Source: Candidatus Cloacimonadales bacterium (GTDB lineage: Bacteria; Cloacimonadota; Cloacimonadia; G963667145). From it: DNA of 64,000 nucleotides. The DNA is taken from positions 158,718 to 222,717 of the forward strand of contig OZ245797.1 in the NCBI GenBank assembly GCA_965228195.1. Reading direction: 5' to 3'. Shown here piece by piece: positions 1,235 to 63,150 of the stretch (position 1 is its first letter; the number at the start of each line of letters is the position of its first letter). The notes under the pieces are model-generated. The model searched no databases. It was not told the origin of the DNA and was given only the letters and a program-made list of their open reading frames with translations. Both the position numbers and the translations under genes were made by a program.

Positions 1235-1291
1235 GCGGTTAAAAAATCGACTACTTACTTTTAGTCAATAGTTTTTGCGGGGGGATTAGCT

Positions 1292-1351
1292 CTGAGCTGA
1301 CCACATAATTGCGGCTAATCAATCAAGAGTTTATTTATGTGGTCAGCTCAG
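1292..1351. repeat. hairpin H1 (type A, extended 17-bp stem)
   Basis: 'ctgagctgaccacataa' / 'ttatgtggtcagctcag'; the loop contains 'gcggctaatca'. Confidence 0.85.
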
Positions 1352-1514
1352 AAAATAAAAATTAAGAATTAAAAATGAAAAATTTCACCGCAACCCCGCA
1401 CTTTTCAGAGCATCGTCCTACTGATGGTTTCCTGCTTCCGCTAGGAATGAGGGCGGGAGGGGAAATATGTTTTTTTCTCCTTGCGGAGATTTGGTGGTTT
1501 GGCTTTCAGCCAGA

Positions 1515-1552
1515 CCCTCTCTTTTCGTTGAGCGCTCAACGAAAAGAGAGGG
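1515..1552. repeat. 38-bp palindrome T1, perfect (similar copies T2 17213-17250, T3 20265-20302, T4 62760-62797; T4 degenerate)
   Basis: 'ccctctcttttcgttgagc|gctcaacgaaaagagaggg'. T2 and T3 each have one central mismatch (gagcgttcaac / gaacgctcaac); T4 reads 'gagcgatcaaag'. Confidence 0.85.
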
Positions 1553-1768
1553 GAGAGAAAAGAAAACCGCTCCGCTTCAACTCGCTAGAGACAGGTCGTG
1601 AGATGTCTTAAGATTACCGTGGCGGGGAGCATCTCCGAGATTTTTTCCTGACTGGCTAATCACTTTGGTCTTGCGTTTTCAACACCTTACGAGAGTGCTA
1701 AGTGTCTCTGCTCAACCGAGCAAGTGAAAACGGGTGACCCCGATGAAGCGGAGAGTGCCACCCCAAAT

Positions 1769-1818
1769 CTGACACCAAAATAGTTGCTAACCATTTTTTG
1801 CTTATATTTTGGTGTCAG
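1769..1818. repeat. hairpin H5 (type C)
   Basis: 'ctgacaccaaaata' / 'tattttggtgtcag', a perfect 14-bp stem; the 22-nt loop contains 'gctaacca'. Confidence 0.85.
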
Positions 1819-1822
1819 ATTC

Positions 1823-4935: not shown

Positions 4936-5983
4936 GGTGCAGATAAAAAAGAGGGTCGGTAAGTTTGAACTCGATTTAGATTTGCGCTTCGACAAGGAGT
5001 TCACCGTGCTACTGGGCGAGTCTGGCAACGGAAAATCTTTGACGCTCTCGGCAATCGCCGGGTTCCTAACGCCCGATAAAGGCTACATCAAGCTTGACAA
5101 CCGCTTTTTGCACTGCGACAAACAAAACATCTTCTTGCCACCCGAAAAGCGCCATATCGGCTATGTGATGCAAGACTCTTACCTGTTTTCGCATCTGAAT
5201 GTCAAAAAAAATTTGCTCTTCGGTGTTAAAGATCTAGACCAGGAGCTACTGGACTCTTTGCTGAAGATATTGCAGCTGCAGCCGCTACTCTGCCGTGGCA
5301 CTTGCAACCTCTCTGGTGGTGAAAAGCAGCGCGTGGCTATTGCCAGGGCTCTACTGACCAAGCCCAAGCTCCTTTTGATGGACGAGCCTATCTCGGCGAT
5401 AGACCCTCGCCAAAAAGATAAGATCTTGATCTATCTCAAAAAAATTCACTCCGTTTTCAAGATTCCCATCCTTTATGTCACCCACAGCATCAGCGAGGCT
5501 GAGTTTTTGGCTGAGAAGATCGCCATCATCAAGTCGGGCAAGATCGTCAAATGTGACACCAAAGAAAAGATCACCTCCTCGGACGACATCTTCAAGCTCG
5601 GAAAAACTTTTATCAACTTCCTCAAAGGCTCACTGCAGCAACAAGACCCCAAAAAAGATTTTAGCATCATCAAGGTGGCAGAAAAACAGATACACATCCC
5701 CTACCTAAAGGCAAAACTGGGGACACAAATCTACCTCAGCTTGCCTGCCGACCAGATCTTGCTCAGCAAAAGTAACCTGAGTGATATCGGCTCGGTCAAT
5801 GTTTTTAGGGCGAAGGTGAAAAGGTTTGTGCGCAAATCAAAGACGAAGAAGATTTTTTTGCTCGATTGTGGCTTCGATCTGGCAGTTGAGCTTCCTCAAG
5901 ACGACCTAAACGACATCAGCCACATCAGCATCGGCGACCAACTCAAGGTCGTTTTCCGTCGAGAAGCTATAGAAATTTTTTAA
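4928..5983 (+). CDS. modC: molybdate ABC transporter ATP-binding protein with C-terminal TOBE domain
   Basis: Walker A 'GESGNGKS', signature 'LSGGEKQRVAIARAL', Walker B 'LLLMDEP'. A C-terminal TOBE-like extension follows. The start overlaps modB by 8 nt. Confidence 0.85.
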   Translation: MLEVQIKKRVGKFELDLDLRFDKEFTVLLGESGNGKSLTLSAIAGFLTPDKGYIKLDNRFLHCDKQNIFLPPEKRHIGYVMQDSYLFSHLNVKKNLLFGVKDLDQELLDSLLKILQLQPLLCRGTCNLSGGEKQRVAIARALLTKPKLLLMDEPISAIDPRQKDKILIYLKKIHSVFKIPILYVTHSISEAEFLAEKIAIIKSGKIVKCDTKEKITSSDDIFKLGKTFINFLKGSLQQQDPKKDFSIIKVAEKQIHIPYLKAKLGTQIYLSLPADQILLSKSNLSDIGSVNVFRAKVKRFVRKSKTKKIFLLDCGFDLAVELPQDDLNDISHISIGDQLKVVFRREAIEIF

Positions 5984-11055: not shown

Positions 11056-11080
11056 TTTTTACTTCCTTAATTTTTTAACT

Positions 11081-13132: not shown

Positions 13133-14924
<1,792 letters not shown>

Positions 14925-15736: not shown

Positions 15737-15926
15737 AATCGGTTTAATTTTCTCCTTAAAATTAGTTCACCCTCAAATCAAAGCAAAAAAGGGAAAACGG
15801 CAAATATCTGTCAAATAGTTTCTTTGGTTGATTTCGCCGAAAGCTTTGTCGCTTCCGCTCCAAAGCTTTGGTTGATTTCCTATAAGTAAAAATGTCACCT
15901 TTTTTTTCTCCTTGCGGAGGGCTAGT

Positions 15927-15976
15927 ATGACCACTAAAATATAGTCGCAAATTTATAGCTTAATTTTAGTGGTCAT
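15927..15976. repeat. hairpin H2 (type B)
   Basis: 'atgaccactaaaat' / 'attttagtggtcat', a perfect 14-bp stem; 22-nt loop 'atagtcgcaaatttatagctta'. Confidence 0.85.
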
Positions 15977-16516
15977 AAATTAAAAGTTAAAAATGAAAAA
16001 TTTCATCCAAACCCTTTCCCTTTAAGTGATTAAATTTTTTCTCCTGCGGAGGCTATTTTTTTTGCGGGGCAGGTAAGCACCCGCTCCTTTCCTTATTTTG
16101 CTAAGTAAATTATTATTGCTTTCTCCTGCGGAGGGCTTACTCTTTTCGGATTGCCGAAAAGAGTAACAGAAAAGACAACTCCGCTTCAAAGCGCCAGCGA
16201 CGGAGCGTGTCACCAGCAGAGTAAAAAAGTGTGGTCGTTCCCGCTTATTACCCGTAGTCTTGTCATTTTCTGCTTTTGGCTTTGCACCTCTACTTAGAAA
16301 GTGATTGGTGTCGCTGGCTTAACAAAGTAACGAAAAGGGGCTAATTTCCCTTTAAGCGGAGGTTGTCCCCACACTCTAAGCAAATAAGCAAGCACCTATC
16401 CACCCAGCTGGGCAGGGCAGGAAGCTCCCTGCCCGCCCCCCTCATTCCTAGCGGAAGCAGGAATCCATCAGTAGGACGATGCTCTGAAAAGTGCGGGGTT
16501 TGAATGGAAAAAAATC

Positions 16517-16801
16517 CTAATCGCACCAACCATCAGATAAATCTTTCCACTCAGGGTTGTCTTTTTCTATCAGCTCTATCTTCCACTCTCTTTTCCACTT
16601 TTTCAGGCTTTTTTCTCGATACACGGCTTCCAGCACTGTTTCATACTCTTCGTAATAAACCAATCGAGTAACATTGTATTTATTGGTAAAACCTTTATTT
16701 ATTTTCTGCTTGTGGGTGGACACTCGCCAAACAAGGTTACGAGTGGTGCCGATATAGAGAGTGCCATTTCGACAGGATGCTAGTATATAAACATACTGCA
16801 T
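16517..16801 (-). CDS. GIY-YIG nuclease-domain protein (94 aa), nested inside repeat block R2
   Basis: 'VYILASCRNGTLYIGTTRNLVWRVSTH' is the GIY-x10-YIG motif. 'YEEYETVLEAVYREKSLKKWKREWK' matches the C-terminal helix and the conserved Arg/Glu. The gene is flanked by inverted copies of repeat module P. Confidence 0.8.
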   Translation of the reverse strand: MQYVYILASCRNGTLYIGTTRNLVWRVSTHKQKINKGFTNKYNVTRLVYYEEYETVLEAVYREKSLKKWKREWKIELIEKDNPEWKDLSDGWCD

Positions 16802-16938
16802 TATGCTTCCTTTGATTTTTTAGCTAAAATGGTATAGCTTTTATTTTGTGTTTACTGTTTTTTGTTCCCTACCCAACCCTTCCTTGGATTCCTGCTTCCG
16901 CTAGGAATGAGGGTGGGAGGGGAAAATGGGTTTCCTAC

Positions 16939-16988
16939 CTGACCACATAAATACGGCTAATCATTTGAGACTTCATTTATGTGGTCAG
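16939..16988. repeat. hairpin H3 (type A)
   Basis: 'ctgaccacataaat' / 'atttatgtggtcag'; loop 'acggctaatcatttgagacttc'. Followed by a duplicated 'gtcag' and then module S. Confidence 0.85.
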
Positions 16989-17532
16989 GTCAGATTTGGG
17001 GTGGCACTCTCCGCTTCATCGGGGTCACCTGTTTTCACTTGCTCGGTCGAGCAGAGACACTTAGCACTCTCTTCAAGTGTTGAAAACGCAAAGACCAAAG
17101 TGATTAGCCTAATCAGGAACAAATCTCGGAGATGCTCCCCGCCACGGTAATCTTAAGACATCTCACGACCTGTCTCTAGCGAGTTGAAGCGGAGTGCGTT
17201 TTCTTTTCTCTCCCCTCTCTTTTCGTTGAGCGTTCAACGAAAAGAGAGGGACTCACCGTAGGTGAACCAAAGGCTTTGTCGCTTCCGCTCCAAAGCAATT
17301 GATGAGTTACAAAGGATAATTGTTAATTAAAAATAAAAGTGAAAAAATCTACTCCACCAGATGGACAGGGTGGAAACACTTTACCCCTATTCCCTCATTC
17401 CTAGCGAAAGCAGGAATCCATCAGTAAAACGATGCTCTGAAAAGTGCGGGGCGAGGAAGAAAAAAACACCATCACTTAGTGGGGAAAGGATGGGGTGTAA
17501 TTTTTCATTTTTCATTCTCAATTTTTAATTTT

Positions 17533-17582
17533 ATGACCACTAAAATGAAGCTATAAATTTGAGACTATATTTTAGTGGTCAG
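17533..17582. repeat. hairpin H4 (type B)
   Basis: 'atgaccactaaaat' / 'attttagtggtca(g)'; loop 'gaagctataaatttgagactat'. Followed by 'atttggggtgg' (the start of S). Confidence 0.85.
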
Positions 17583-17658
17583 ATTTGGGGTGGATTTTTT
17601 CATTCTTCTTTTTTATTCTTTCATTTGCGTGAGCTACTGCTCACGCAACTATCAACTA

Positions 17659-19967: not shown

Positions 19968-20966
19968 GTGTCAAATAGTTTCTTTGGGTGTTTTTGCCGA
20001 AAGCTTTGTCGCTTCCGCTCCAAAGCTTTGGTTTATTTTACCAAAAGGAAAAATATTACCTTTCTTTTTGGTCGTTCACCTTGCGGTGAGCTACTCTTTC
20101 TTGCAAAGCAGGTAAGCACCCATTCCTTTCCTTATTTTACGAAGTAATCTATTATTGCTTTCTCCTGCGGAGGGCGGACTCTTGTCGCTTTCAGCGGTGA
20201 GTCTTTTTTTCGCCTAGTGGCGAGATGTGTCGCCTTTCTTTTTGGTTATTGGCTTTCAGCCTGACCCTCTCTTTTCGTTGAACGCTCAACGAAAAGAGAG
20301 GGGAGAGAAAAGAAAACCGCTCCGCTTCAACTCGCTAAAGACGGGTCGTGAGATGTCTCTAGAGTTCCGTGGCGTAGAGCATCTCCGAGATTTTTTCCTG
20401 ACTGGCTTATCACTCTGGTCTTTCGTTTTCAACACCTTAAAGAGAGTGCCAAGTGTCTCTGCTCAACCAAGAAAGGAAAAAAAGTGACCCCAGATGAAGC
20501 GGAGTATACCATCTTACCCCTCTAAGCAAGCAAGTGAGACCTAGTCTATCCCCCCCAGCTGGGCGGAATGGGTGCTTGCCTGCTTGCCTAGAGGGAGGGA
20601 ACAATCTCCGCTTAACTGGGTCTTCTTGTTTTCCCTGCATTGATAAGCCAGTGACAAAAATCACTTTCTAAATAGAGGTGCAAAGCCAAAAGCAGAAAAT
20701 AACAAGACTACGGGTAATAAGCGGGAACAACCACACTTTTTTACTCTACTGGTGACACGCCCTGTCGCTGGCGTTCTGAAGCGGAGTTGTCTTTTCTGTT
20801 ACTCTTTTCGGCAATCCGAAAAGAGTAAGCCCTCCGCAGGAGAAAAAATTTAATCACTTAAAGGGAAAAGGTTTGGATGAAATTTTTTCATTTTTCATTT
20901 TTAATTTTTATTATCTGACACCAAAATATAAGCAAAAAATGATTAGCAACTATTTTGGTGTCAGAT
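19968..20966. repeat. repeat block R3: modules S (inverted), T3, Q (inverted), ending in hairpin H6
   Basis: 20230-20520 is the reverse of the S/T unit in R1/R2. 20690-20880 is the reverse complement of Q at 16120-16270. Lies between the GLUG-gene start and the hemW stop. Confidence 0.85.
20914..20963. repeat. hairpin H6 (type C, stem extendable to 17 bp 'tatctgacaccaaaata')
   Basis: 'ctgacaccaaaata' / 'tattttggtgtcag'; loop 'taagcaaaaaatgattagcaac' contains 'tgattagc'. Overlaps the hemW stop codon. Confidence 0.85.
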
Positions 20967-22046
20967 AAGAGCCAGAGCTATCAGCTCGTCTGCCACGAAG
21001 TAATCTTTCGGTTTTAAAGCCACCCTCTTATCATCAACCAGCAAAAATTCGGCATATTTTGCCAAAAATTGCCGATACTTCTGCCGAAAGTCACTGCCAA
21101 ACTTCTTCCGATAATCTGCCAAAATGATGCCTGTTGCCAAGCGTAAACTCAATAAGATGAACTCCGACTCCCGCTGAGCCAGGCTCAGCTCCTCCACCCC
21201 GCCGTGTCCGTCGGTGCGCAAAAACTTATCGCCCTTTTGGTAATAACTGCATCCGCCCTTGCCCAAAGCCAAATACTGCTTGTCTTGCCAATAAGCCAAG
21301 TTGTGCTGCGAGCGGTAGCCCGGCAGGCAGAAGTTAGACAGCTCATAGTGACAATATCCTGCCTGCAAAAGCTTCTTTCTGATCTGAGCATAAAAATCAG
21401 CCAACTGATCGTCACCGGGCAAGTTTTGCTTTTGGGCGAACATCGGCACGCCCTGCTCCAGTGTGAGCAAATAGGTGGAGATATGTTCTGGACGAAGAAG
21501 CAAAAACTTCTCTAGACTCTTGTCTAGATCTGCCTGAGTTTGCCCCGGCAAGCCATAAATCAGATCCAAAGAGATGTTGTCAAAACCTACAGAGCGCAAA
21601 GTATGAAAAGCGGCAATGTTTTGGCGACTATCCGACCGGCGCCCTAGTAGCTGCAGCTCGCTATCCAAGAAAGATTGCATCCCCAGACTCACTCTGGTGA
21701 AGCCCAGTTCCTTGAGGCTACGGGCAAACTGGCTGGTAATATCGAAAGGGTTAGCCTCGATACTCAGCTCTTGCACTCTTGCCAAATCTAAACAAGACAA
21801 GAGCTTACCTAGCTGTCCATAAGTGAGCAAAGAGGGCGTGCCACCGCCGAAGTAAACGGTGATTGGCTTAAAAGTGGGAAAAGCAGCAAGACGCTTTTGT
21901 GCTGCCGCTAGATATTCGTCAAAATCGAACTCCAAGCCAGAGTAAAAACTACAGTAGTTGCACTTTTGACGACACCAAGGAATATGGAAGTAGAGGTGTT
22001 CCAAGCTCTTCAAATCAGCTTTAGACCCAGTAAAATCCCCAGCCAA
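20961..22046 (-). CDS. hemW: radical SAM family haem chaperone HemW / oxygen-independent coproporphyrinogen-III oxidase-like
   Basis: 'LYFHIPWCRQKCNYCSFY' is the CxxxCxxC radical-SAM cluster motif at the HemN/HemW position, and 'GGGTPSLL' is present; 361 aa. The stop overlaps hairpin H6. Confidence 0.8.
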   Translation of the reverse strand: MAGDFTGSKADLKSLEHLYFHIPWCRQKCNYCSFYSGLEFDFDEYLAAAQKRLAAFPTFKPITVYFGGGTPSLLTYGQLGKLLSCLDLARVQELSIEANPFDITSQFARSLKELGFTRVSLGMQSFLDSELQLLGRRSDSRQNIAAFHTLRSVGFDNISLDLIYGLPGQTQADLDKSLEKFLLLRPEHISTYLLTLEQGVPMFAQKQNLPGDDQLADFYAQIRKKLLQAGYCHYELSNFCLPGYRSQHNLAYWQDKQYLALGKGGCSYYQKGDKFLRTDGHGGVEELSLAQRESEFILLSLRLATGIILADYRKKFGSDFRQKYRQFLAKYAEFLLVDDKRVALKPKDYFVADELIALALI

Positions 22047-38559: not shown

Positions 38560-39300
38560 AACGCTTAAAACAAGCCAAATTTTACCCTCGCTTATGTCAA
38601 GAAAAAATAGTTTGTGTCTGCTTTCTCCTGCGGAGGGCTCTGACCTGACCACATAAATACGGCTAATCATTTGAGACTTCATTTATGTGGTCAGGTCATA
38701 ATTAAGAGTTAAAAATTAAAAATGAAAAATTCCACCGCAACCCCGCACTTTTTTTTGCATCGTGCTACTTATGGATTCCTGCTTCCGCTAGGAATGAGGG
38801 AATAGGGGTAAAGCGTTTCCGCCCTGTCCATCTGGTGGAGTAGATTTTTCACTTTTATTTTTAATTAACAATTATCCAATGTAACTTATCAATTGCTTTG
38901 GAGCGGAAGCGACAAAGCTTGCGGAGGGCTTACTCTTGTCGCTTTAGCTAGTGGTTCACCTTGCGGTGAGCTACTCTTTCTTGCAGGGCAAGTAAACACC
39001 CATTCCCTTCCTTATTTTGCTAAGTAAATTATTATTGCTTTCTCCTGCGGAGGGCTTACTCTTTTCGGATTGCCGAAAAGAGTAACAGAAAAGACAACTC
39101 CGCTTCAGAGCGCCAGCGACGGGGCGTGTCACCAGCAAAGTAAAAAAGTGTGGTCGTTCCCGCTTATTACCCGTAGTCTTGTTATTTTCTAAACTTAACC
39201 TTTGCACCTCTATTTAGAAAGTGATTTTTGTCGCTGGCTTATCAATGCAAGGAAAATAAGAAAACCCCGTTAAGCGGAGGTTTCCCCGCCTTTAAGTCAT
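38560..39300. repeat. repeat block R4: H7 - inverted P - linker - Q, adjacent to tRNA-Met
   Basis: 38745-38930 is the reverse complement of 17270-17450 (P plus linker). 39040-39250 matches Q at 16120-16330. Detached hairpin H8 lies 340 bp further on at 39649. Confidence 0.85.
38641..38698. repeat. hairpin H7 (type A, extended 18-bp stem with duplicated 'tgacc')
   Basis: 'tgacctgaccacataaat' / 'atttatgtggtcaggtca'; loop identical to H3. Confidence 0.85.
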
Positions 39301-39648
39301 CGCTAGCTTTTGTGGTTGGCATATATTCAAGGCTCAGCACCAAATAAATACTCTAATCAAAAAGCGTCCAATTTCTTACACTGACTGAGCTTACGATAAT
39401 TGCGTAGTGCTATATCACCGATAAAAAAGAATGATAGTGATTCATAGCACAAGCAATATTAGCGTGCGAGGCGAAGTTTAGAAATTTAGCTTTTTGATTA
39501 TGTATTTTGTTTTTACCTTTTGTTTTACTTTTAGCTTTGGACACCCAAAGGGAAAAGTAAATAACTAGTCACCTATTAGGCGAAAGAATCCACTCTGACC
39601 AGTTAGGCGGGGTGGATTTTTTCATTTTTCATCTTTAATTATTATTTT

Positions 39649-39698
39649 CTGACCACATAAGTGCGGCTAAAGATTTTAGACTTAATTTATGTGGTCAG
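39649..39698. repeat. hairpin H8 (type A variant, 12-bp stem), solitary, just downstream of cysK
   Basis: 'ctgaccacataa' / 'ttatgtggtcag'; loop 'gtgcggctaaagattttagacttaat'. Preceded by the AT-rich 'ttttcatttttcat' box. Confidence 0.8.
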
Positions 39699-39705
39699 AA
39701 ATCCC

Positions 39706-50439: not shown

Positions 50440-51195
50440 AGGCAAAAAAGACAAGATTTCCTGCCCCAAAGGGCTGGAAATCTCTCCGCTTTCAGCGGGG
50501 AATGTTTTTTTCGCCTAGCGGCGAAGAGTTTTTTACTTTTCCCTTTGGGTTCTTGGCTTTCAGCCAAAATGTCACCTTTCTTTTTTTTTGAAAAAAAATA
50601 AATGTGACCGAAAGAAAAAATCAAATCAAAAGACAAAATCCTAACTTGCAAAACTCCTTCGTTGTGGCTGTAGTGTATCGTTTAGATTCTTTCTTAGATA
50701 TACTAAAGTAAGAGAAATAAACTCCTCACACATCCACAACTTCAGTCGTTTAAACAAGTTCACGGATTTAGCCTTGATTGATTACTAGCCCTTCCCGCCT
50801 AGCTGGGTAGGATAGGTGCTTGCTTATTTGCTTAGAGTGTGGGAACAACCTCCGCTTAAAGGGGTCTTCTTATTTTAGTTACATTGATAAGCCAGCGACA
50901 AAAATCGCTTTCTCAGTAAAGATGCAAAACCAGAAGCAGAAAATGACAAGACTACGGGTAATAAACGGGAACAACCACACTTTTTTACTCTGCTGGTGAC
51001 ACGCCCCGTCGCTGGCGCTCTGAAGCGGAGTTGTCTTTTCTGTTACTCTTTTTGGCAATCCGAAAAGAGTAAGCCCTCCGCAGGAGAAAGCAAATATTAC
51101 TGCTTTAATGAGACTAAGACGATGGTGTCTCCGACACCTTATCTTTCTCCCCTAATTCCTAGCGGAAGCAGGAATCCATCAGTAGGACGATGCTG
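50440..51195. repeat. repeat block R5, including direct repeat DR1 (50571-51195), left boundary of the defense island, adjacent to tRNA-Leu
   Basis: 50571-51195 and 61604-62226 differ at about 17 positions over ~625 bp by eye. The block contains Q (reverse orientation) and P, and begins with hairpin-like 'gtcaccttt...aaatgtgac'. Confidence 0.9.
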
Positions 51196-51391
51196 AAAAA
51201 AACCAAACAAAGCAAACAGCTACAAAAAAAAATCTTTCGCTGTTTTTCAGCTTGCGGGTAACGGTTTGAATATGTGGAATACAGGATTTCAAAGCACTTC
51301 ACTATCAAACCGTTGAGAAGTTGAAGCGGGCTATAACCGTTGAATTCACTACTATTTCGCCTATTTTGTATATAAAATGTTGTAACATTTT

Positions 51392-52936: not shown

Positions 52937-53084
52937 TCTCTGTCTTTAAATAACTGGCAACCACTCGCTACCATCATTTTACATATCATCCTTATTTGAC
53001 TTGCTATCTACATAGTTTATATTTTTTCCCATAACTCTTACTCACTCCTACTTGTCGAAAAAATAAGCCCAAACTTCTTTGTCA

Positions 53085-53500
53085 ACCAAAATAGTCAAGG
53101 CTTTGTCGCTTCCAGCGGTGAATGTTTTTTTCTCCTGCGGAGGGCTTACTCTTTTCGGATTGCCGAAAAGAGTAACAGAAAAGACAACTCCGCTTCAAAG
53201 CGCCAGCGACGGGGCGTGTCACCAGCAGAGTAAAAAAGTGTGGTTGTTCCCGCTTATTACCCATAGTCTTATTATTTTCTGTATCTGGCTTTGCATCTCT
53301 ACTTAGAAAGTGATTTTTGTCACTGGCTTATCAATGCAGAGAAAATAAGAAGATCCCGTTAAGCGGAGATTGTCCCCACACTCTAAGCAAATAAGCAAGC
53401 ACCTATCCCGCCCAGATAAGCAGCGCAAGAAGCCCATTTTCCCCTCCCACCCTCATTCCTAGCGGAAGCAGGAATCCATCAGTAGGACGATGCTGAAAAA
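53085..53500. repeat. repeat block R6 inside the island (Q forward ... P forward) between the RT promoter region and the DUF1016 gene
   Basis: 53130-53230 matches Q ('ttctcctgcggagggcttactcttttcggattgccgaaaagagtaacagaaaagacaactccgcttcaaagcgccagcgacggggcgtgtcacc'). 53450-53500 matches P ('cctcattcctagcggaagcaggaatccatcagtaggacgatgctg'). Confidence 0.85.
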
Positions 53501-53602
53501 AACCATTTGACAATCAATGTCTTAACCAAACCCTTTGAAAGATCAATCCAAATTGTTCAAAACAAAAAGCCAATATTTTGAGTTGGTCGAAAGGAGATAG
53601 CT

Positions 53603-54715: not shown

Positions 54716-57700
54716 CTATAATCTGATTTGATTACCAGTTTGACTCTGAATCAATGTTTCAAAAATAAACTCTTTATATCTTCTTTGAAAATCTTTGTCG
54801 TTGTTAAACTTTTTGAACACTTCAGTTTGACTAAACAAATATTGTTGCACCACTTCCTCAAGTTTTTTATCTGCACTAATTTTTGCGTTTTGGCGATCTG
54901 AGTATTTTATCGTATTCATTATTTCTTTATTAGCTTTCATTTCTGCAGGTAATTGCTCTATTAATATTTTTCTTACTTTGTCTTTATCAGACCACTCAAT
55001 ATCACCAAATCGCTGATTAAATACACTTAAAATATTTTCCAGTGTATCTAACTCTGGTTCTTGTTGTCCACCTCTTACATCAACAGGAATTCCACAAATT
55101 TCGCCTGGCTTCTCAACTAATGCAATATCTTTGGTTGTCTCTTTTGAGGGACGATAACTGTCCATATCAATACTTTCCAAAATTCCTTCCGTAAAATCAT
55201 CAGTCTGATCTATATATAACTTAGTAACAAGGTATTTAAGAAACCAGAAAAGCTTTTCCCAAGTTTGATTGTTAAAATCTAGTATTTTAGTAAGATAGCT
55301 GTAAACTCTCAAAAATGATTTTGCTTTTGCCTTGAAATCTATTTGTTGATCTTTGCTAATATCATTTTTAAATATTTTAACAGACCTATCTATTATAGGG
55401 TCAAGTTTTGCACGCTCTTCACCTTCAATATATTTTTTGAAAAAGTCATCAATTTGGTAATCAGAATAAACCTCGAAAGCTTCCATAGAGTCTACTAAAT
55501 CGTTCAGTTTATTTGGATTAGTTTCTTCACTTAATATGGTTGCCGTGTAATAAGGGTCAAAAGCCAACTTAATTTCTTCTGCTTCGTTGAAAAAGTCTAA
55601 GACAAAGGTATCTTTTTTATGTGGTTTTTTAGCACGGTTTAATCGTGAAAGTGTTTGAACGGCTTGAACTCCTGCCAACTTTTTATCTACATACATAGTG
55701 TGCAATAATGGCTCATCAAAACCTGTCTGGTATTTTTCGGCAACTATCAAAAAGCGATATTCCATTTTTTTAAAATTCTTGGGAATATCTGTTTTAAATG
55801 TTTTGAAGTTATTCATGCCAACCTCATTATATTCAACACCCTTGTATAGTTTTGTTCCAGAGAAAGCAACAATAGCTTTGTAGGGCGATTTTATTTCTTT
55901 CAAATAAGTGTCGAAAGCTTGCTTATACTTAATTGCTAATTCAATACTTTTGGTAACAACCATCGCTTTTGCTTTTCCACTTATTAGTTGACGAACATCA
56001 CGATGAAAATGGTCAATCATTATTTTAGACTTTTCGGCAATGGCAAATTCATTACCCTCTACATAAGCTCGAAGTTTTTTCTGTGCCTGTTTGGTGTCAA
56101 ATTCAGGATTATCTTCAACCGCTTTAATTAGCTTATAAAAAGAGTTGTAAGTTGTGTAATTTTTCAATACATCCAGAATAAACCCTTCCTCAATTGCCTG
56201 TTTCATGCTGTAGACATGGAAAGCATAAAATCTATGTTTTATCTCCCCATTTTCATCGGTGTAAGTTTCTTCCGATTTTACACCAAAAGTTTCCAGTGTT
56301 TTATTTTTTGGCGTAGCCGTAAAGGCAAAGTAAGAGCCGTTTTTGATCATTTTACGACTTTCAATCAGGTCGTTTATTTTATCCTCCAAGGTTTTCTCTT
56401 CCTTTTCTTCTTCGCCATGTTTATCTGCTAAAACAGCATTCATTTTCGAAGAAGTCTGTCCACTTTGTCCACTGTGTGCTTCATCAATGATAATTCCGAA
56501 TTGCATAGCTGGCATATCTGCCATTTCATCTAATAAAAACGGGAAAGTCTGAACGGTGCAAACAATTACTTTTTTACGGTTGGCGAGTGCTTCTTTTAGC
56601 TGACTTGTTTTACTTCCACCAACACTGGTAATGTGCTCAACAATGCCACGTTTTGGCGAGAACTGTTTAATATCTTCGCTTAGCTGTTTATCAAGCACAA
56701 TACGGTCTGTAATTACGATAACCGAATCAAATAAATGCGTTTCTCCTGAAGTGTCAAACAAACCATGCAGTTGATGAGCCAACCAAGCTATCGATTTTGA
56801 TTTGCCCGAACCTGCCGAATGTTGAATCAAGTATTTATTGCCAACACCATTACTTTTTGCATCTGCTAAAATTTGCCTGACTGCGGTAAGCTGATGATAA
56901 CGAGGAAAAATCATCATGCGTTTTACTCTTTTAGTTTCCTCGTCGGTTTCTTCAACAACCTGTGCAAATTTGTCGATAATGTTGGCAAGCGACTGTTTGG
57001 TTAAAACCTCTTCCCAAAAGTAATGTGTTTTTAGTCCCGTTGGGTTTACTGGATTTCCAGCCCCAAAATTGCCTGTTGCTCTACCTTCGTTTAAGCCTTT
57101 GTTAAAAGGCAAAAAGAAAGTTTTTTTATGATTCAAATGCGAGCTCATAAAGATCAATTCTGTATCGACTGCAAAATGAACCATGCAACGAGCAAAAGAA
57201 AATATCTTTTCTTTTGGGTCTCGGTCGTTTTGGTATTGGCGAATGCCGTTGTGAACGGTTTGTCCGCTTAACGGATTTTTAAGCTCACATGTAATAATTG
57301 GCAAGCCGTTTAAAAAGATAGTCAAATCTAAGCGGTTGGCATTGTCAGAACTATAAACTAACTCCTGAGTCACTGAAAAAATATTGGCGTTGAATTTATC
57401 AAGGTCTTTGGTATTGTAGCTTGAAGCAGGTTGACGGAAAAACAAATTCACGGTTTTATCGAAGTGCTTTATACCTTTTCGTAACACTTCAATTACGCCT
57501 AGTTTCCTGAGTTTTTCATCCAAACGCACCAAAAAAGAACGCTCGCCCTTGCGCTTAATCATTTGGTAAGTCTCAGGCTGGGTCTTTTTGATAAACCCCC
57601 ACAATTGTTTTGGGTTTATGCAAAACTCTTTGTCGAAATCTTTAGAAACAGTCTCGCAAAACTTGTTTTGCTCCACAAGTTGTTTCACAATGTATTTCTG

Positions 57701-57736
57701 AAACCCCTTTTCTGATGTATCTGTAAATGTCCTCAT
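54716..57736 (-). CDS. hsdR: Type I restriction enzyme R subunit HsdR
   Basis: 1006-aa ORF. N-terminal nuclease domain, SF2 helicase motifs 'QHSAGSGKSKSIAW' (Walker A) and 'IIIDEAHSGQ' (DEAH), and a C-terminal helical domain. Last gene of the operon. Confidence 0.9.
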   Translation of the reverse strand: MRTFTDTSEKGFQKYIVKQLVEQNKFCETVSKDFDKEFCINPKQLWGFIKKTQPETYQMIKRKGERSFLVRLDEKLRKLGVIEVLRKGIKHFDKTVNLFFRQPASSYNTKDLDKFNANIFSVTQELVYSSDNANRLDLTIFLNGLPIITCELKNPLSGQTVHNGIRQYQNDRDPKEKIFSFARCMVHFAVDTELIFMSSHLNHKKTFFLPFNKGLNEGRATGNFGAGNPVNPTGLKTHYFWEEVLTKQSLANIIDKFAQVVEETDEETKRVKRMMIFPRYHQLTAVRQILADAKSNGVGNKYLIQHSAGSGKSKSIAWLAHQLHGLFDTSGETHLFDSVIVITDRIVLDKQLSEDIKQFSPKRGIVEHITSVGGSKTSQLKEALANRKKVIVCTVQTFPFLLDEMADMPAMQFGIIIDEAHSGQSGQTSSKMNAVLADKHGEEEKEEKTLEDKINDLIESRKMIKNGSYFAFTATPKNKTLETFGVKSEETYTDENGEIKHRFYAFHVYSMKQAIEEGFILDVLKNYTTYNSFYKLIKAVEDNPEFDTKQAQKKLRAYVEGNEFAIAEKSKIMIDHFHRDVRQLISGKAKAMVVTKSIELAIKYKQAFDTYLKEIKSPYKAIVAFSGTKLYKGVEYNEVGMNNFKTFKTDIPKNFKKMEYRFLIVAEKYQTGFDEPLLHTMYVDKKLAGVQAVQTLSRLNRAKKPHKKDTFVLDFFNEAEEIKLAFDPYYTATILSEETNPNKLNDLVDSMEAFEVYSDYQIDDFFKKYIEGEERAKLDPIIDRSVKIFKNDISKDQQIDFKAKAKSFLRVYSYLTKILDFNNQTWEKLFWFLKYLVTKLYIDQTDDFTEGILESIDMDSYRPSKETTKDIALVEKPGEICGIPVDVRGGQQEPELDTLENILSVFNQRFGDIEWSDKDKVRKILIEQLPAEMKANKEIMNTIKYSDRQNAKISADKKLEEVVQQYLFSQTEVFKKFNNDKDFQRRYKEFIFETLIQSQTGNQIRL

Positions 57737-57739
57737 AAA

Positions 57740-59128
57740 CTATTCCTTTATTTTTGAACGATATTGGTTTTCTTTTTCGGCGACCATTCCCAAATCAATA
57801 TCTTGACCCAAATTTGAGTTTGCATCATCAGGCACTTTTAACTGCCCTGTTACTATTTGGGTGATTAAACTTTCTTGGTACTCTTTGGCTTTAGCGATTT
57901 CTGTTTGGGCTTTTGTAACAGCTATTTCATACGGAGATAGTTCGCTCTCAATCTTTCGAACAATATTAATTTGTTCCTCTTTAGGAGGTAGTGGAATAAA
58001 CATTTTACTAAAATCTCCCTTGCCAATATTTGGTTGACCTGTCTCTCTTTGACCAAATATAATTTGGTCAAAAATAACAGACGAAGATAATAGCCAAAAA
58101 AGATAGTCTTTATTTAGTTTTTTATTAGAAGGGAAAAAGTTGCCTACACGATAGTTTTGTAATAAAACTTCGTTAATACCCTTTGCACATATAATCTTAC
58201 CAATTGTACCACCTGTCAATGCCATTAAAATATCACCTTCGTTTATGATATCTTCTCTAAATTCAACCTTCCTTTTAGAATCAACAAAAGAGCAATTTGA
58301 TAAATCTAAACTTCCTTCATAGGTTAGTTGGGTGATTTTAACAATTTTAATTCCAATATTCTTAAAGTCATAATCTCTAAATTGGTGACCATGCCTTAAA
58401 TAAATATAATGGTTAAATTTCACAACTTCCCAATGTTCAGGTATATCACCAATCCATTCGTTGTTAGAACTAATAAGTTTTCCTGAACCCTCACCATTGG
58501 TTATAAGTTTATATATGATTGATTTCTTTTCTTCCTCCAACAGCTCAATCAATCGTTCTTTTTTAGCAACAAAATCTTGTATTTGCTTTGTTTTGCGGTC
58601 GAGGTAGGCAACTATGGCATTTTGGGTTTCAAGCGGTGGCACAATACTGTACATACGTTTGAAATCCACGTAACGTAATGGTATTTGTCCATCTGCAATT
58701 CCATAAGCAAAACGTTCCACATAGTTTTTATAAAAACCAGTACGAAACATGTAATAGAAGAAACGAGGATTTAACTCAACTCCTTTCTTTGGTTTCAAAA
58801 CTGTACAAGCTGGACTTACAATTCCTTTGTAAACGCTGTAACCCGATGCACCTTGGCGAAAACGCATGCTGTAAACCAAATCGCCAGGATAAACCAATAA
58901 GTACTTACTTTTATCTAAAGTGGATGAATCCCTTTTCTCCAATTCAGATTGTTTAATTACTCCACGCCCAATGGTTACTGAAAGTAGTTCTTTATCTTCG
59001 TGTCCACGTTCAATCCGTTCCTGAAAAATTGCAATATTTGGTAACAGTTTCCAGCCTTCGGGTAATTGCGAAATGTAATCGTATTCAACAGGCTGATAGT
59101 TTGTGTATGCTTGTAATTTACCCATCAC
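57740..59128 (-). CDS. hsdS: Type I restriction-modification specificity subunit HsdS
   Basis: 462-aa ORF with two target-recognition domains separated by conserved coiled-coil spacers ('LIELLEEEKKSIIYKLITNG', '...LITQIVTGQLKV'). It overlaps hsdM by 4 nt. Confidence 0.85.
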   Translation of the reverse strand: MMGKLQAYTNYQPVEYDYISQLPEGWKLLPNIAIFQERIERGHEDKELLSVTIGRGVIKQSELEKRDSSTLDKSKYLLVYPGDLVYSMRFRQGASGYSVYKGIVSPACTVLKPKKGVELNPRFFYYMFRTGFYKNYVERFAYGIADGQIPLRYVDFKRMYSIVPPLETQNAIVAYLDRKTKQIQDFVAKKERLIELLEEEKKSIIYKLITNGEGSGKLISSNNEWIGDIPEHWEVVKFNHYIYLRHGHQFRDYDFKNIGIKIVKITQLTYEGSLDLSNCSFVDSKRKVEFREDIINEGDILMALTGGTIGKIICAKGINEVLLQNYRVGNFFPSNKKLNKDYLFWLLSSSVIFDQIIFGQRETGQPNIGKGDFSKMFIPLPPKEEQINIVRKIESELSPYEIAVTKAQTEIAKAKEYQESLITQIVTGQLKVPDDANSNLGQDIDLGMVAEKENQYRSKIKE

Positions 59129-61314
59129 TCTTTCACTATTTGGTTTAAAATACCGTCGGTTTCTTGCTCTAGTTGCAAAATTTCTGCGCTAATCTCTTCA
59201 ATGCTGCGTGGCGGAACATAGTTGTAGAAATAACGGGTAAAAGATATCTGGTAACCTTTTACGGTTTTCTTGTGGTCAATCCAAGCGTCATTTACATGAG
59301 CCAAAACCTCACGCTCAAAATAGGTTTGAATATCTTCGTCTAAAGGCACATTTTCGGTGTCGCGCAAATCGCCATCGGCTTCGTAAATTATAGTGCCGTC
59401 TTTTTCTGTTTTCTTGATTACAGGCTCGGCATCTTCGTTTTTCCAAGTAATGGCGTTTATAATTGCTTTTTGTGCCTTATTGTCGAGTTTCAGCTTTTCA
59501 CTCTTTATGGTTTCGGTAAATAGTTTAGAAAACTTGTTAAAATCGTTATGCTGTTCGGTTCCAATGCTGCTCATTAGTTTTGTCGCATTTTTAAGCAGTT
59601 CTTTTTGTGCTTTCCAAAAATCCTCACTAAACAAATTTTTCTTTTGTGCCGCTTTTAGTTTTATCTCGTGTCGGGCAAGATGGTTTTCAATCTCAGGTTT
59701 TAAATCTTTCAGTTTGGTATAAACATCATCGCCAAACTTCTGGTAAACCCAAACCATTTCAGCGGCAATACTTTTTTCAAAACGCAAACCCTTAAGGGCT
59801 TCCTGGGTAAATTGTGCCGATAAACGCAAAGGGCGTTCAACCGTAATTTTATTGTAGCCAAAATAGTCGTTCGGGAATATTTTGGAAATGTCCGATTCTT
59901 CAAAGTCCATATAAAGCTTTGTAATTTGGTCGATGTGTTTGGCTGTCATCTCACAGTTCTTATCTCCCAAGTTTTTGCGAAGCTTTACATACAATTCAAG
60001 TGCGTTAATCAATTGCACCTTCCCTTTTCGTTTGTCTGGTTTTCGGTTGTTCACAATCCAAACATAGGTTGGTATTCCTGTATTATAAAAGATATTTTTA
60101 GGTAAAGCAATGATGCAGTCTAACCAATCGTTTTCGATAATATATTTGCGGATTTCGCTTTCTCCGCCACCAGCGTCGCCTGTAAACAAAGCCGAACCAT
60201 TATGAACAGTTGCAATTCGGCTTCCCAGTTCGGTATTGTGTTTCATTTTGCTGAGCATATTCATCAGGAACAATAATTGCCCGTCAGAAATAGTTGGCAA
60301 ACCAACTTGAAAACGAGGATCTTTAATATTCTGGGCATTTTCGCCCGAACCTTTTTTGCCTCGGTTGGCAACAATGGCGTTTTCATCAAGCTTCCAAGTT
60401 TTGCCATAAGGTGGATTTGAGAGCATAAAATCAAAATTAAGGCTTGGAAAACCATCTTTTGAAAGGGTAGAGCCAAAAGCGATATTTTCAGGTTTATCGC
60501 CTTTTATCAGCATATCAGAGGTGCAAATTGCAAAAGTTTCAGGATTTACCTCTTGTCCATACAACAAAAATGATGCTTCGTTTTCTGTAAGTTCCAAAGC
60601 AAACTGTTCTGCCTCGGTTAACATTCCGCCACTACCACAGGCTGGATCATAGATTAAATAACTTCCTTTTTTGATTTTATTTTTAACAGGCAAGAACAAA
60701 ATGTGAGTCATCAGTTTAATGATTTCTCGTGGCGTAAAGTGTTCTCCAGCTTCCTCGTTATTTTCTTCGTTAAACTTTCTGATTAGTTCCTCGAAAACAT
60801 AACCCATTCCTAAATTGGTCAACGGTGGCATTTTATCACCTTTTCCATTTACCGCTTCATTAGGACTCAAGTTAATCTCTCTGGAGGCAAACTTTTCAAT
60901 TAGCAAATAGGTGATCTCGTTTTCTTTCATAGTCTCAAGCTGGTTTCGCAGTTTGAATTTGCTAATTATTTCTTGCACATTGGGGCTGTAACCATCCAAA
61001 TAAACCTCAAGGTTGCTGTCTATATTATCAGAATCGTTTAACAGGCTCTCAAAAGTAAACTTGGAAGTGTTCCAAAATGGATAACCAGTTTGTGATTTTA
61101 AAGCAGACAAATCGTCTATTTGATTTTGCTTCATAAACTCTACTGCTTCAAGCACCTTTGCCTTTGTCGGAACAAGAAGAGCGTCTAACCGTCTCAAAAC
61201 AGTAAAAGGCAAAGTTATATCTCGATATTTGCCTCTAACAAAAACATCTCTGAGCACATCGTCGGCAATACTCCAGATGAAACTTACTATTTGATTGTGA
61301 ACTTTATTGTTCAT
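59125..61314 (-). CDS. hsdM: Type I restriction-modification N6-adenine DNA methyltransferase HsdM (long form, 729 aa)
   Basis: HsdM N-terminal domain, SAM-binding 'DPACGSGGML', catalytic 'LSNPPYG', and a ~250-aa helical C-terminal extension. Confidence 0.9.
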   Translation of the reverse strand: MNNKVHNQIVSFIWSIADDVLRDVFVRGKYRDITLPFTVLRRLDALLVPTKAKVLEAVEFMKQNQIDDLSALKSQTGYPFWNTSKFTFESLLNDSDNIDSNLEVYLDGYSPNVQEIISKFKLRNQLETMKENEITYLLIEKFASREINLSPNEAVNGKGDKMPPLTNLGMGYVFEELIRKFNEENNEEAGEHFTPREIIKLMTHILFLPVKNKIKKGSYLIYDPACGSGGMLTEAEQFALELTENEASFLLYGQEVNPETFAICTSDMLIKGDKPENIAFGSTLSKDGFPSLNFDFMLSNPPYGKTWKLDENAIVANRGKKGSGENAQNIKDPRFQVGLPTISDGQLLFLMNMLSKMKHNTELGSRIATVHNGSALFTGDAGGGESEIRKYIIENDWLDCIIALPKNIFYNTGIPTYVWIVNNRKPDKRKGKVQLINALELYVKLRKNLGDKNCEMTAKHIDQITKLYMDFEESDISKIFPNDYFGYNKITVERPLRLSAQFTQEALKGLRFEKSIAAEMVWVYQKFGDDVYTKLKDLKPEIENHLARHEIKLKAAQKKNLFSEDFWKAQKELLKNATKLMSSIGTEQHNDFNKFSKLFTETIKSEKLKLDNKAQKAIINAITWKNEDAEPVIKKTEKDGTIIYEADGDLRDTENVPLDEDIQTYFEREVLAHVNDAWIDHKKTVKGYQISFTRYFYNYVPPRSIEEISAEILQLEQETDGILNQIVKE

Positions 61315-62285
61315 TTATTTACCTCGTCAATTTAAAAAAGTCATAACAATAAACAAATTACAGCTTTGCAAAAAAAAATCTTGCTGCAAATTTGAGTTTT
61401 AGCAAAAATGTGACTTTTTGGCAAGCTAAAAACATCAACTTGTGTGTCGGAGCTTGCAAATTTGCTGTTTGTGTGGAGTGCAATCACAACTATTTACTAA
61501 CATCATTGTCTATAATTTTCATTATAGTATCCAAGAAAACTTATCCAAATTTTCCCGTCAACCAAAATAGTCAAGGCTTTGTCGCTTCCGGCGGGTTACT
61601 TATGTCACCTTTCTTTTTTTTTGAAAAAAATAAATGTGACCGAAAGAAAAAATCAAATCAAAAGACAAAATCCTAACTTGCAAAACTCGTTCGTTGTGGC
61701 TGTAGTGCATCATTTAGATTCTTTCGGAGCATAGCTAAAGACAGAGAAATAAACTCCTCACACATCCACAACTTCAGTCGTTTAAGCAAGTTCGACGGAT
61801 TTAGTCTTGATTGATTACTAGCCCGTCCCGCCTAGCTGGGTAGGATAGGTGCTTGCTTATTTGCTTAGAGTGTGGGAACAACCTCCGCTTAAAGGGGTCT
61901 TCTTATTTTAGTTACATTGATAAGCCAGCGACAAAAATCGCTTTCTCAGTAAAGATGCAAAACCAAAAGCAGAAAATGACAAGACTACGGGTAATAAACG
62001 GGAACAACCACACTTTTTTACTCTGCTGGTGACACGCCCCGTCGCTGGCGCTCTGAAGCGGAGTTGTCTTTTCTGTTACTCTTTTTGGCAATCCGAAAAG
62101 AGTAAGCCCTCCGCAGGAGAAAGCAAATATTACTGCTTTAATGAGACTAAGACGATGGTGTCTCCGACACCTTATCTTTCTCCCCTAATTCCTAGCGAAA
62201 GCAGGAATCCATCAGTAAGACGATGCCCAAAAAAGTGCGGGGTTGCGGTGGATTTTTTCATTTTTCACTCTTAATTTTTTCTTTT

Positions 62286-62335
62286 ATGACCACTAAAATG
62301 AAGTTATAAATTTGAGGCTATATTTTAGTGGTCAT
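62286..62335. repeat. hairpin H9 (type B)
   Basis: 'atgaccactaaaat' / 'attttagtggtcat'; loop 'gaagttataaatttgaggctat'. Followed by module S. Confidence 0.85.
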
Positions 62336-62990
62336 ATTTGGGGTGGCACTCTCCGCTTCATCGGGGTCACTTTTTTTCCTATCTTAGTAGAGCAGAGACA
62401 CTTGGCACTCTCTTAAGGTGTTGAAAACGAAAGACCAAAGTGATTAGCCAGTCAGGAACAAATCTCGGAGATGCTCCCCGCCACGGTAATCTTTAAGACA
62501 TCTCACGCCCTGTCTCTAGCGAATTGAAGCGAAAGCGACAAAGCTGTGGGGACAATCTCCGCTTAAAGGGAAATTAGCCCCTTTTCGTTACTTTGTTAAG
62601 CCAGTGACAAAAACCACTTTCTAAGTAGAAGTGTAAAAGTTACGTTTAGAGAATGACAAGTCTACGGATAATAAGCGGGAACAACCACACTTTTTTACTC
62701 TGCTGGTGACACGCCCCGTCTCTAGCGAATTGAAGCGGAGCGCGTTTTCTTTTCTCTCCCCTCTCTTTTCGTTGAGCGATCAAAGAAAAGAGAGGGTCTT
62801 GCTGAAAGCAATAAGAGTAAGCCCTCCGCAGGAGAAAGCAATAATAATTTACTTAGCAAAATAAGGAAAGGAGCGGGTGCTTACCTGCCTGCAGAAAAAA
62901 ATGCAAGGTTAGAAAGAGAAAAACATAATCACTCAGTGGGAAAAAAATTGAATGAAATTTTTTCATTTTTCATTCCCAATCTTTTATTTT

Positions 62991-63040
62991 ATTACCACTA
63001 AAATGAAGCTATAAATTCGAGACTATATTTTAGTGGTCAT
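62991..63040. repeat. hairpin H10 (type B, one stem mismatch)
   Basis: 'attaccactaaaat' / 'attttagtggtcat'; loop 'gaagctataaattcgagactat'. Confidence 0.8.
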
Positions 63041-63150
63041 ACCTGCCCTCCGCGAGGAGAAAAAGACATCCCACCCCCTTGCAAGCAGAAAACAAAAAAA
63101 AAGATTGACTCAAAATCTATCTTCCAGAGTTTACTCCTAAATTAAGATGT

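Follow-up and report, generated by a model that had tools for sequence, protein, structure and literature searches.

Here we propose that seven intergenic loci in a 64-kb stretch of chromosome from a Candidatus Cloacimonadales bacterium (contig OZ245797.1 of assembly GCA_965228195.1, forward-strand positions 158,718 to 222,717; hereafter the window, whose own numbering is used for coordinates) are probably arrays of lineage-specific, hairpin-forming, non-coding DNA repeats, and that these arrays are the counterpart of the dRS3/NTS mosaic arrays of Neisseria (neisserial intergenic mosaic elements, NIMEs), complete with a pair formed by an Ssn nuclease and its hairpin (Ssn-related motif, SRM). 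In function and layout, the system that appears to come closest by analogy is the Neisseria NTS/dRS3-Ssn pair within NIME arrays. The preliminary description of this DNA had treated the repeat family as wholly unidentified. This does not hold for one of its modules (P) and the GIY-YIG gene nested among the repeats, both of which belong to the Ssn/hairpin system already known, whereas HP50 (a 50-nt hairpin), the S and Q units, the palindromes pal30 and pal38, and two foldback modules termed rods are without known counterpart.

The window is ordinary chromosome (44% GC) of an uncultured bacterium with a genome of approximately 1.56 Mb, and carries secA, clpXP-tig, gatB, secDF, yebC, and a gene for a V-type ATPase subunit; among the matches listed, the closest named relatives of its YebC are Cloacimonadota metagenome-assembled genomes (61-64% identity). 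Repeat-bearing blocks were delimited by BLAST of the window against itself, and module copies were located by approximate matching; BLAST end-points on their own yielded blurred module borders. The nine blocks recovered (1289-1820, 15809-16500, 16885-17593, 19969-20966, 38637-39296, 39609-39699, 50487-51205, 53081-53505, and 61557-63064) total 6,334 bp, or 9.9% of the window, and coincide with the seven loci (~7 kb) at which repeat mosaics had been described, here numbered arrays 1 to 7; the locus placed at 38.6-39.3 kb is present and extends to 39.7 kb. In a repeat search of the window, direct repeats formed families that reach 300 nt (82-99% identity), while the pairs of inverted repeats extend to 308 nt (90% identity). 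These array repeats are not due to chance, since the hexamer CTCCGC/GCGGAG is concentrated in them, with 36 of its 56 occurrences falling in the ~10% of the window that they occupy. All blocks lie between open reading frames (ORFs) or tRNA genes, in keeping with the intergenic position first described, except that one hairpin (20909-20970) overlaps the stop codon of a neighbouring gene. The GIY-YIG gene (16517-16801) is, as had been stated, the only credible ORF within the arrays: it alone has Pfam support, and the ten longest other ORFs inside them gave no Pfam match.

Modules P, S, Q, and the 38-bp palindrome (pal38) were found in both orientations, as reported, with eight, four, seven, and four copies in the window, respectively. 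To these four modules we add pal30 (six copies), the F hairpin (four copies), the D mini-hairpin (TTCTCCTGCGGAGGGC; ten copies), and the two rod modules of ~165 nt; the A/T box occurs nine times and HP50 ten times. HP50, S, Q, pal30, pal38, and the rods are non-coding.

The gene nested in array 2 (ssn, 16517..16801, minus strand) encodes a 94-aa single-domain GIY-YIG protein of the Ssn family (cd10448) of single-strand DNA nucleases, with the activity being predicted. The Pfam GIY-YIG domain covers residues 2-74 (E 6e-16), and a second domain is absent. A tblastn search with the window Ssn finds the N. gonorrhoeae SsnA orthologue (E 3e-18), and in a BLASTP comparison this 94-aa protein aligns along its entire length at 55% identity (E 5e-35), within the E < 1e-10 to Neisseria SsnA by which the family has been delimited (PMC11893778). 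SsnA of N. meningitidis is a GIY-YIG enzyme of 94 aa (Chenal et al. 2025, PMC11893778) that binds the NTS hairpin (CGTCATTCCCGCGMAVGCGGGAATCYRG, an extended dRS3) solely as single-stranded DNA, cleaves a few nucleotides upstream of the hairpin, and loses cleavage when Y6, Y17, and E64 are mutated; the Neisseria Ssn/NTS pair reduces integration of transforming DNA (PMC11893778). In the window protein these catalytic residues (Tyr6, Tyr17, Glu64) have their equivalents in Y5, Y16, and E63, and by every family feature that can be tested from sequence the protein belongs to the Ssn family.

Module P reads CCTC-ATTCCT(A)GC-GGAA-GCAGGAAT-CCA. Folded as single-stranded DNA, it has a 5-nt unpaired tag, a stem of 6+2 bp between ATTCCT(A)GC and GCAGGAAT that is interrupted by a single bulge, the loop GGAA, and CCA as its tail, a geometry that is the same as that of the Neisseria NTS. 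The eight copies lie at 1421..1452 (minus strand; a variant with GGAAAC), 16440..16471 (plus), 16881..16912 (minus), 17393..17424 (plus), 38768..38799 (minus), 51151..51182 (plus; a CCTAATT variant), 53451..53482 (plus), and 62184..62215 (plus; also CCTAATT). The tag is CCTC or CCTA in all eight window copies, and relatives show CCTC and CGTC; in one relative, a CCTC-ATTCCTGC-GCAG-GCAGGAAT-CCA hairpin occurs seven times in 20 kb, beside two ssn copies. The CGTC-tagged class of REPs includes CCTC tag variants, stems starting with AT, 4-nt loops, and CCA tails, and dRS3 has been assigned to its CGTC-1 family (Di Nocera et al. 2013, PMC3733652). With this class P shares an 8-bp stem starting with AT, a 4-nt loop, the CCA tail, and a clustered arrangement in which other repeats alternate with its copies, as they do in Neisseria and Wolbachia, and its CCTC tag is a described variant; it differs in representing a new stem/loop sequence type and in coming from a phylum outside those reported. 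With the SRM hairpins P has in common the unpaired 5' tag, the stem opening with ATTCC, a loop of 4 nt, and a C that immediately follows the palindrome, whereas its tag is CCTC rather than CGTC, its stem is richer in A/T, and one A is bulged. We regard the comparison with NIMEs, already drawn in the preliminary description, as the best available, and the accompanying statement that there is no sequence relationship as in need of revision, since the P hairpin is of the same class as Neisseria dRS3/NTS. P would accordingly be a divergent variant of the CGTC/CCTC-tagged palindromes (dRS3/NTS, SRM) that Ssn enzymes bind.

The position of the gene agrees with this assignment. Ssn homologues across bacteria have flanking SRMs (PMC11893778), and the 94-aa ssnA ORF of N. 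gonorrhoeae itself has canonical NTS sites on its flanks. The window ssn lies between two inverted P hairpins with outward-facing tags, one downstream (16440-16471, plus) and one upstream (16881-16912, minus), which is the NTS-ssnA-NTS layout. Homologues of the window protein that are 60-73% identical to it are spread over many phyla, and the read-through ORF tails of some end in VIPAKAGIH, SVIPAQAGIQ...SRFRGND, or WIPAFAGMT, which are the translated NTS hairpin CGTCATTCCCGC...GCGGGAATCC; the homologues showing the VIPAKAGIH and WIPAFAGMT tails are 66-67% identical to the window Ssn. The nested gene thus appears to encode a nuclease partnered with the P hairpin and not an incidental passenger. 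What is shared with the Neisseria system is a 94-aa single-domain GIY-YIG protein at 55% identity with catalytic residues kept, and a tagged hairpin on both gene flanks (SRM-ssn-SRM) that brackets other genes too; what differs is that the pair, of predicted activity here, comes from a host distant from the Proteobacteria in which the system was studied.

NIMEs consist of repeat (RS) elements each flanked by dRS3-class inverted repeats, in arrays that vary among syntenic sites (PMC1797815). They share with the window arrays an intergenic location, a composition of numerous families of short repeats with a dRS3-class hairpin set between them, variation of length and content at syntenic sites, and the presence of other repeat types and insertion sequence (IS) elements; proximity to variable surface-protein genes may be a further common feature. 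The window arrays differ in having longer (160-280 nt), internally palindromic modules whose sequences are unrelated to the Neisseria RS elements, and in that most modules are bounded by CTCCGC mini-hairpins or HP50 rather than by a dRS3-class hairpin.

HP50 was analyzed in a gapless alignment of 17 copies from the window and three related loci, which provided the covariation analysis that the preliminary description had called for. Its 15 core pairs are ~100% paired across the 17 copies, with double changes in 8 columns and G·U in 2 of ~255 cells. The covariation score is 0.329, compared to 0.152±0.022 in shuffles (0/500 reach the score) and to 0.093 or less with slid partners, and intrastrand complementarity is thus maintained. 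Beyond a conserved core, CTGAC(C/A)(A/C)C, the stem is lengthened by 1-7 copy-specific complementary bases, and the 22-nt asymmetric loop holds a conserved TAATCATTTG-like motif in either orientation relative to the flanks. Three stem types recur across genomes. Type 1 is found at 1291..1352 (18-bp stem), 16937..16990, 38639..38700 (20-bp stem with one mismatch), and 39646..39701 (5 nt from a cysK-like stop codon); type 2 at 15926..15977, 17532..17583, 62285..62336, and 62990..63041 (one arm mismatch); and type 3 at 1766..1821 (ending 2 nt from the moeA stop codon) and 20909..20970 (where the overlapped stop codon is that of a HemN-like gene). The copy at 16937-16990 is identical in 50/50 nt to L081 13230-13279, a locus of a relative, the trigger factors of the two genomes being 75% identical. 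The type-1 arms were considered as Xer/dif arms and rejected, given a spacer of 22-26 nt instead of 6 and the lack of resemblance in types 2 and 3. A distant relative (L090; 33% GC, trigger factor 45% identical) has an intergenic repeat family of its own (TGAGACCTTTGCAAAATTAAAATAA..., in spacers 1-397, 1201-1445, 5109-5630, and 10979-11363), and also has at 5362-5399 a hairpin, CCTGTCACCAAA-N14-TTTGGTGTCAGG, that is similar to HP50 type 3 and has ATTTG after it.

The S and Q units share an architecture composed of an outer inverted repeat, CTCCGCTT(C/A)A ... TGAAGCGGAG, an inner inverted repeat, and a perfect CTCTTTTCG-type palindrome. In S the outer repeat is CTCCGCTTCA/TGAAGCGGAG and the inner GCAGAGAC/GTCTCTAGC, followed by pal38; in Q they are CTCCGCTTAA/TGAAGCGGAG and CCAGCGAC/GTCGCTGG, followed by pal30 and the D mini-hairpin. 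The inner repeat covaries among Q, S, and the units of relatives, in which it is AAAGAC/GTCTTT. S units are located at 1515..1769 (minus), 16993..17250 (plus), 20265..20520 (minus; variant 5' end), and 62335..62531 (plus; shortened at GAAGCG), and Q units at 16121..16361 (minus), 20606..20844 (plus), 39040..39279 (minus), 50850..51088 (plus), 53130..53368 (minus), and 61883..62121 (plus). Pal38, a perfect palindrome of 38 bp, occupies 1515..1552, 17213..17250, 20265..20302, and, as a decayed copy, 62759..62796; pal30, a perfect 30-bp palindrome (TTACTCTTTTCGG-N4-CCGAAAAGAGTAA), occupies 16137..16166, 20799..20828, 39056..39085, and 53146..53175, and with one mismatch each 51043..51072 and 62076..62105. 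One Q/S chimera (62557..62836, plus) consists of a Q body and an S-type 3' part with pal38. This chimera, together with the S unit terminated early at GAAGCG, suggests that units recombine at shared motifs, and chimeric units are joined at the short common motifs GAAGCGGAG, GTC(G/T)CT, and GGGGTGG. The rods comprise two families of ~165-nt imperfect foldbacks with 9-10 compensatory pairs between genomes. The first, which also bears a small T/A hairpin, has copies at 50571..50800 and 61604..61833 and the same fold on both strands (-43.8 and -46.1 kcal/mol), and the second (rod K, 39345..39560) is present once in the window and twice in a relative's locus, L087. In rods and in the S/Q inner repeat, as in HP50, intrastrand complementarity is selected or maintained.

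Several observations weigh against the proposal that these arrays are a counterpart of NIMEs and contain an Ssn/SRM pair. In the window, L081, and L084 there are 0 matches to the degenerate string published for SRMs, HGTCWYN(0-2)YYVSBRHN(0-5)WNVSBRGN(0-2)RNCYNB, and the proposed Ssn-P pairing therefore rests on position and anatomy. There are 8 P hairpins in 6.3 kb of arrays, and most boundaries carry other motifs (CTCCGC, 36 copies), which is not a strict dRS3-RS-dRS3 order; HP50, S, Q, and the rods have no enzyme to which they can be assigned. Small G+C-rich hairpins with T-rich tails number 14 in the arrays against 6.6±2.6 expected (15700-21000) and 12 against 2.0±1.7 (61300-63300), a ~2- to 6-fold enrichment, and some of these terminator-like mini-hairpins form G·U pairs on just one of the two strands. 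Genomes with 75% identity in trigger-factor protein retain 72-90% identity in module interiors, and HP50 stems are recognisable in the relative with 45% identity. Such conservation exceeds the need of selfish DNA and could reflect a sequence-specific function, RNA included. Several of the mini-hairpins contain a CTCC...GG(A/G)G motif with T·G/T-A alternation.

The conserved interiors and terminator-like mini-hairpins would be expected if S, Q, and the rods were genes for structured non-coding RNAs of ~165-190 nt closed by long-range helices, with the hairpins acting as processing or termination signals, an elaboration of the structured-RNA possibility raised in the preliminary description. A 10-bp outer helix and the covarying inner helix do close S and Q, and one S hairpin has several G·U pairs, on a single strand only. 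We nevertheless consider RNA genes very unlikely. At gathering score, Rfam identifies only four tRNAs in the window, and at E<=1 only weak miRNA-like hairpins and RT-2 (21.5 bits vs 40) are added, none of the modules being assigned to a family. S and Q fold with modest z-scores (-1.1 to -3.5), which are mainly owed to the perfect palindromes, and with energies that are similar on both strands and show no strand preference. G·U pairs are nearly absent from HP50, and no U-tract follows the perfect 13-18-bp palindromes. Promoter scans gave 9 sites in 15.7-21.0 kb (8.3±3.2 in shuffles; not enriched) and 7 sites in 61.3-63.3 kb (3.1±1.9; about two standard deviations above shuffles), and in neither region did a promoter recur at a consistent module position. 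Perfect Watson-Crick symmetry, the scarcity of wobble pairs, palindromes without U-tracts, and the occurrence of modules in both orientations relative to adjacent genes point to DNA-level hairpin repeats rather than RNA genes, as does the presence or absence of arrays at orthologous sites, which is detailed below.

Relatives were defined by trigger factor (n=7, 66-80% identity), five of the seven being on contigs of 1.54-1.59 Mb that are mostly circular by name. L081 and L084, two loci of one relative, are densely filled with the same module families, and L084 holds two ssn copies separated by a tandem array of a 211-bp unit; at 9157-9871, 3.4 tandem copies of this unit (an F-like module plus a CCTC hairpin) lie between two 99%-identical ssn cassettes. 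An IS256-family (Transposase_mut) gene is located inside an L084 array at 14134-15303, with module repeats on both sides. The related genomes also supply the empty sites that had been sought. Between clpX and pstS lie 186 bp in the window (a plain terminator and a conserved promoter), 176 bp in L087, and 172 bp in L088, while in L081 this spacer is 880 bp and contains a mosaic of ~640 bp ending in a CGTC hairpin; the rpoD-fusA spacer measures 2,264 bp in L087, 180 bp in L088, and 1,128 bp in L081. Because orthologous spacers hold an array in some genomes and none in others, arrays are gained, lost, and remodelled between genomes, in line with what has been described for NIME arrays (PMC1797815). 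The empty clpX-pstS spacer of the window (46743-46928), with its canonical intrinsic terminator and a promoter region conserved in relatives (CAATCTTAACAT..CCTTTATAAAATTTTAAC), is a useful reference. Among the matches listed in a YebC-based locus search, all at <=64% identity, no genome contained the modules. A blastn search of a plasmid collection with one array returned no match, and exact P-hairpin and HP50 patterns had 0 matches in genome, metagenome, and viral contig collections, zeros that say little because the source genome and its close relatives are apparently absent there.

The presence and absence of arrays between genomes, the foldback rods, the inverted-repeat-bounded units, which look like MITEs or REPINs, and the IS256-family transposase inside the L084 array would also suit classical non-autonomous transposons (MITEs, PATEs, REPINs) moved by a transposase encoded elsewhere (IS200/IS605 TnpA, RAYT, or a DDE enzyme such as that of the IS256 family), with Ssn as an unrelated neighbour. 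The rods resemble Correia elements and other bacterial MITEs in being foldbacks of ~165 nt with long imperfect terminal inverted repeats embedded in arrays, and differ in having no target-site duplication and no identified parent IS. We judge this explanation unlikely. There is no transposase in the 64-kb window, and IS200/IS605 TnpA and TnpB were found neither there nor in ~100 kb of relatives' loci. GTAG-tagged hairpins and a Y1 transposase are likewise absent from the window, and within the sequence covered nothing supports an origin of the IS200/IS605 type, whose elements the preliminary description had named as similar in organisation. A search for target-site duplications at the array borders found none, and the sequences flanking HP50 are mutually complementary, not direct repeats. 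Only one enzyme gene, ssn, lies inside arrays in each of the two genomes inspected for this and has a flanking module hairpin. We concur with the earlier exclusion of CRISPR, integron attC, and, by sequence, REP/BIME, insofar as the arrays are not GTAG-type REPs.

REP/BIME and REPIN-RAYT systems nevertheless offer an analogy, in that they too may be described as mosaic arrays of hairpins and other motifs with foldback doublets and single-stranded DNA recognition, and in that a nuclease gene lies between its own hairpins (one copy in the window, two in L084); they differ in their GTAG tag and in using an HUH tyrosine transposase rather than a GIY-YIG enzyme. By this analogy, Ssn might also spread the repeats, as RAYT is thought to spread REPINs. 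That Ssn goes beyond the role of a restriction-like nuclease and propagates the whole set of hairpin-bounded non-autonomous modules (P, perhaps HP50, the rods, and S/Q) as a GIY-YIG analogue of RAYT-REPIN strikes us as quite unlikely, and we know of no case in which mobilisation by Ssn has been shown. If true, this small-genome lineage would be a natural case of elements filling intergenic space and organising the exchange of defence and surface-protein cassettes.

Two variable loci are flanked by the arrays. Directly repeated segments of 633 bp in arrays 5 and 7 (50569..51201 and 61602..62234, both plus strand, 96.9% identical) bracket a 10.4-kb low-GC island (51206-61556; 35.1% GC vs 46.1% elsewhere) beside tRNA-Leu. 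The island encodes a UG14-class defence reverse transcriptase (RT; 51392-52936, minus), a DUF1016/PDC-S02 nuclease (53603-54604, plus), and a type I restriction-modification system (hsdR 54716-57736, hsdS 57740-59128, hsdM 59125-61314). It is subdivided by P hairpins with identical tails that bracket the RT cassette, the copies at 51151..51182 and 53451..53482 forming its left and right edges. CRISPR, attC, a retron, and an RT-associated RNA were considered and dropped, the RT being a UG14 defence enzyme within the island and not part of the repeats.

The direct repeats around the island next to tRNA-Leu, and the three arrays that abut tRNA genes, could alternatively be read as remnants of a decayed integrated element (a prophage, an island att site, or regulatory regions) duplicated by island insertion near tRNA genes. 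This is extremely improbable, as no integrase is encoded in the island and no phage genes accompany it, the HP50 pattern is without a match in the viral contig collection, in a search that did not extend to phage records, and the same modules occur at many housekeeping spacers in several genomes.

The second variable locus lies between arrays 2 and 3 and encodes a 748-aa protein (17659-19905, minus) with a signal-peptide-like N-terminus. It has no Pfam, PADLOC, or NCBIfam match and five homologues in 5.8 billion proteins. Its L084 homologue is 43% identical, compared to 75% for trigger factor and ~75% for housekeeping proteins, is likewise array-flanked, and lies within ~7 kb of ssn; a split paralogue is 576 bp from ssn. 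The protein appears to be a fast-evolving, lineage-restricted, and predicted secreted one. A 96%-identical homologue (P0242) was considered as a second strain and rejected, as it derives from the same organism on a foldback contig. This contig, L091, matches window 18640-26646 at 100% identity before it folds back inside the 748-aa gene, which places the window's organism in ENA analysis ERZ25074352; a second linear foldback contig, L085, mirrors the relative's ssn/cinA region, and both are probably long-read chimera artefacts. The array-flanked island and the secreted protein are single cases that may parallel the NIME arrays near variable surface genes.

Under the proposed NIME-like reading, the modules would act as DNA, with hairpins extruded when the DNA becomes single-stranded during replication, repair, or DNA uptake. 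Ssn would bind P hairpins on one strand and nick a few nucleotides upstream (5' of CCTCATTCC), as the Neisseria enzyme does. Arrays would grow, shrink, and shuffle through insertion and through recombination at GAAGCGGAG, GTCKCT, and GGGGTGG, and would serve as recombination substrates or landing pads and as exchange points for variable cassettes, including those of the rapidly evolving secreted protein and of the defence island, which P hairpins divide into cassettes. For most modules, the mechanism is inferred.

The first description of Ssn nucleases and their hairpins dates from 2025, and the window adds a divergent pair that falls outside the published motif and comes from a distant, uncultured lineage. 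It also carries beyond Neisseria the notion of variable loci being organised by arrays of mosaic hairpin repeats, and provides a new candidate enzyme/site pair, predicted as such, for single-stranded DNA tools. Uncharacterised foldback families are exposed, namely HP50, whose stem sequence is conserved across deep divergence, and the two rods. In annotation, spurious small ORFs can be attributed to these repeats, as can, probably, assembly breaks in the lineage.

The arrays differ in their module order. Array 1 (R1, 1289..1821) reads, in minus-strand order, HP50, S, pal38, linker, P, A/T box, and HP50; it had been described as a complete unit of ~600 bp with hairpins at both ends, and is indeed hairpin-bounded, with a measured length of 531 bp (1291-1821). 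Array 2 (15809..17593) comprises F, HP50, A/T box, Q (minus), P, the ssn gene, P (inverted), HP50, S, pal38, F, P, A/T box, and HP50, and array 3 (19969..20970) comprises F, linker, pal38, S (minus), linker, Q (plus), A/T box, and HP50. Array 4 (38623..39701) consists of D, HP50, A/T box, P (minus), F (minus), Q (minus), rod K, A/T box, and HP50. The arrays bordering the RT cassette contain rod, linker, Q (plus), and P in array 5 (50487..51205) and Q (minus), linker, and P in array 6 (53081..53505), and array 7 (61557..63064) runs through rod, Q, P, A/T box, HP50, S (cut short), the Q/S chimera, pal38, D, A/T box, HP50, and D. The sub-threshold RT-2 match lies in the F hairpin region of array 3 (19981-20108, minus; E 0.057, gathering score 40), away from the RT gene, and is probably noise. 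Genes for tRNA-Met, tRNA-Leu, and tRNA-Arg (38472-38547, 50274-50359, and 63151-63227) directly abut three of the seven arrays, and similar modules also adjoin tRNA-Leu in L082, a locus of a related genome.

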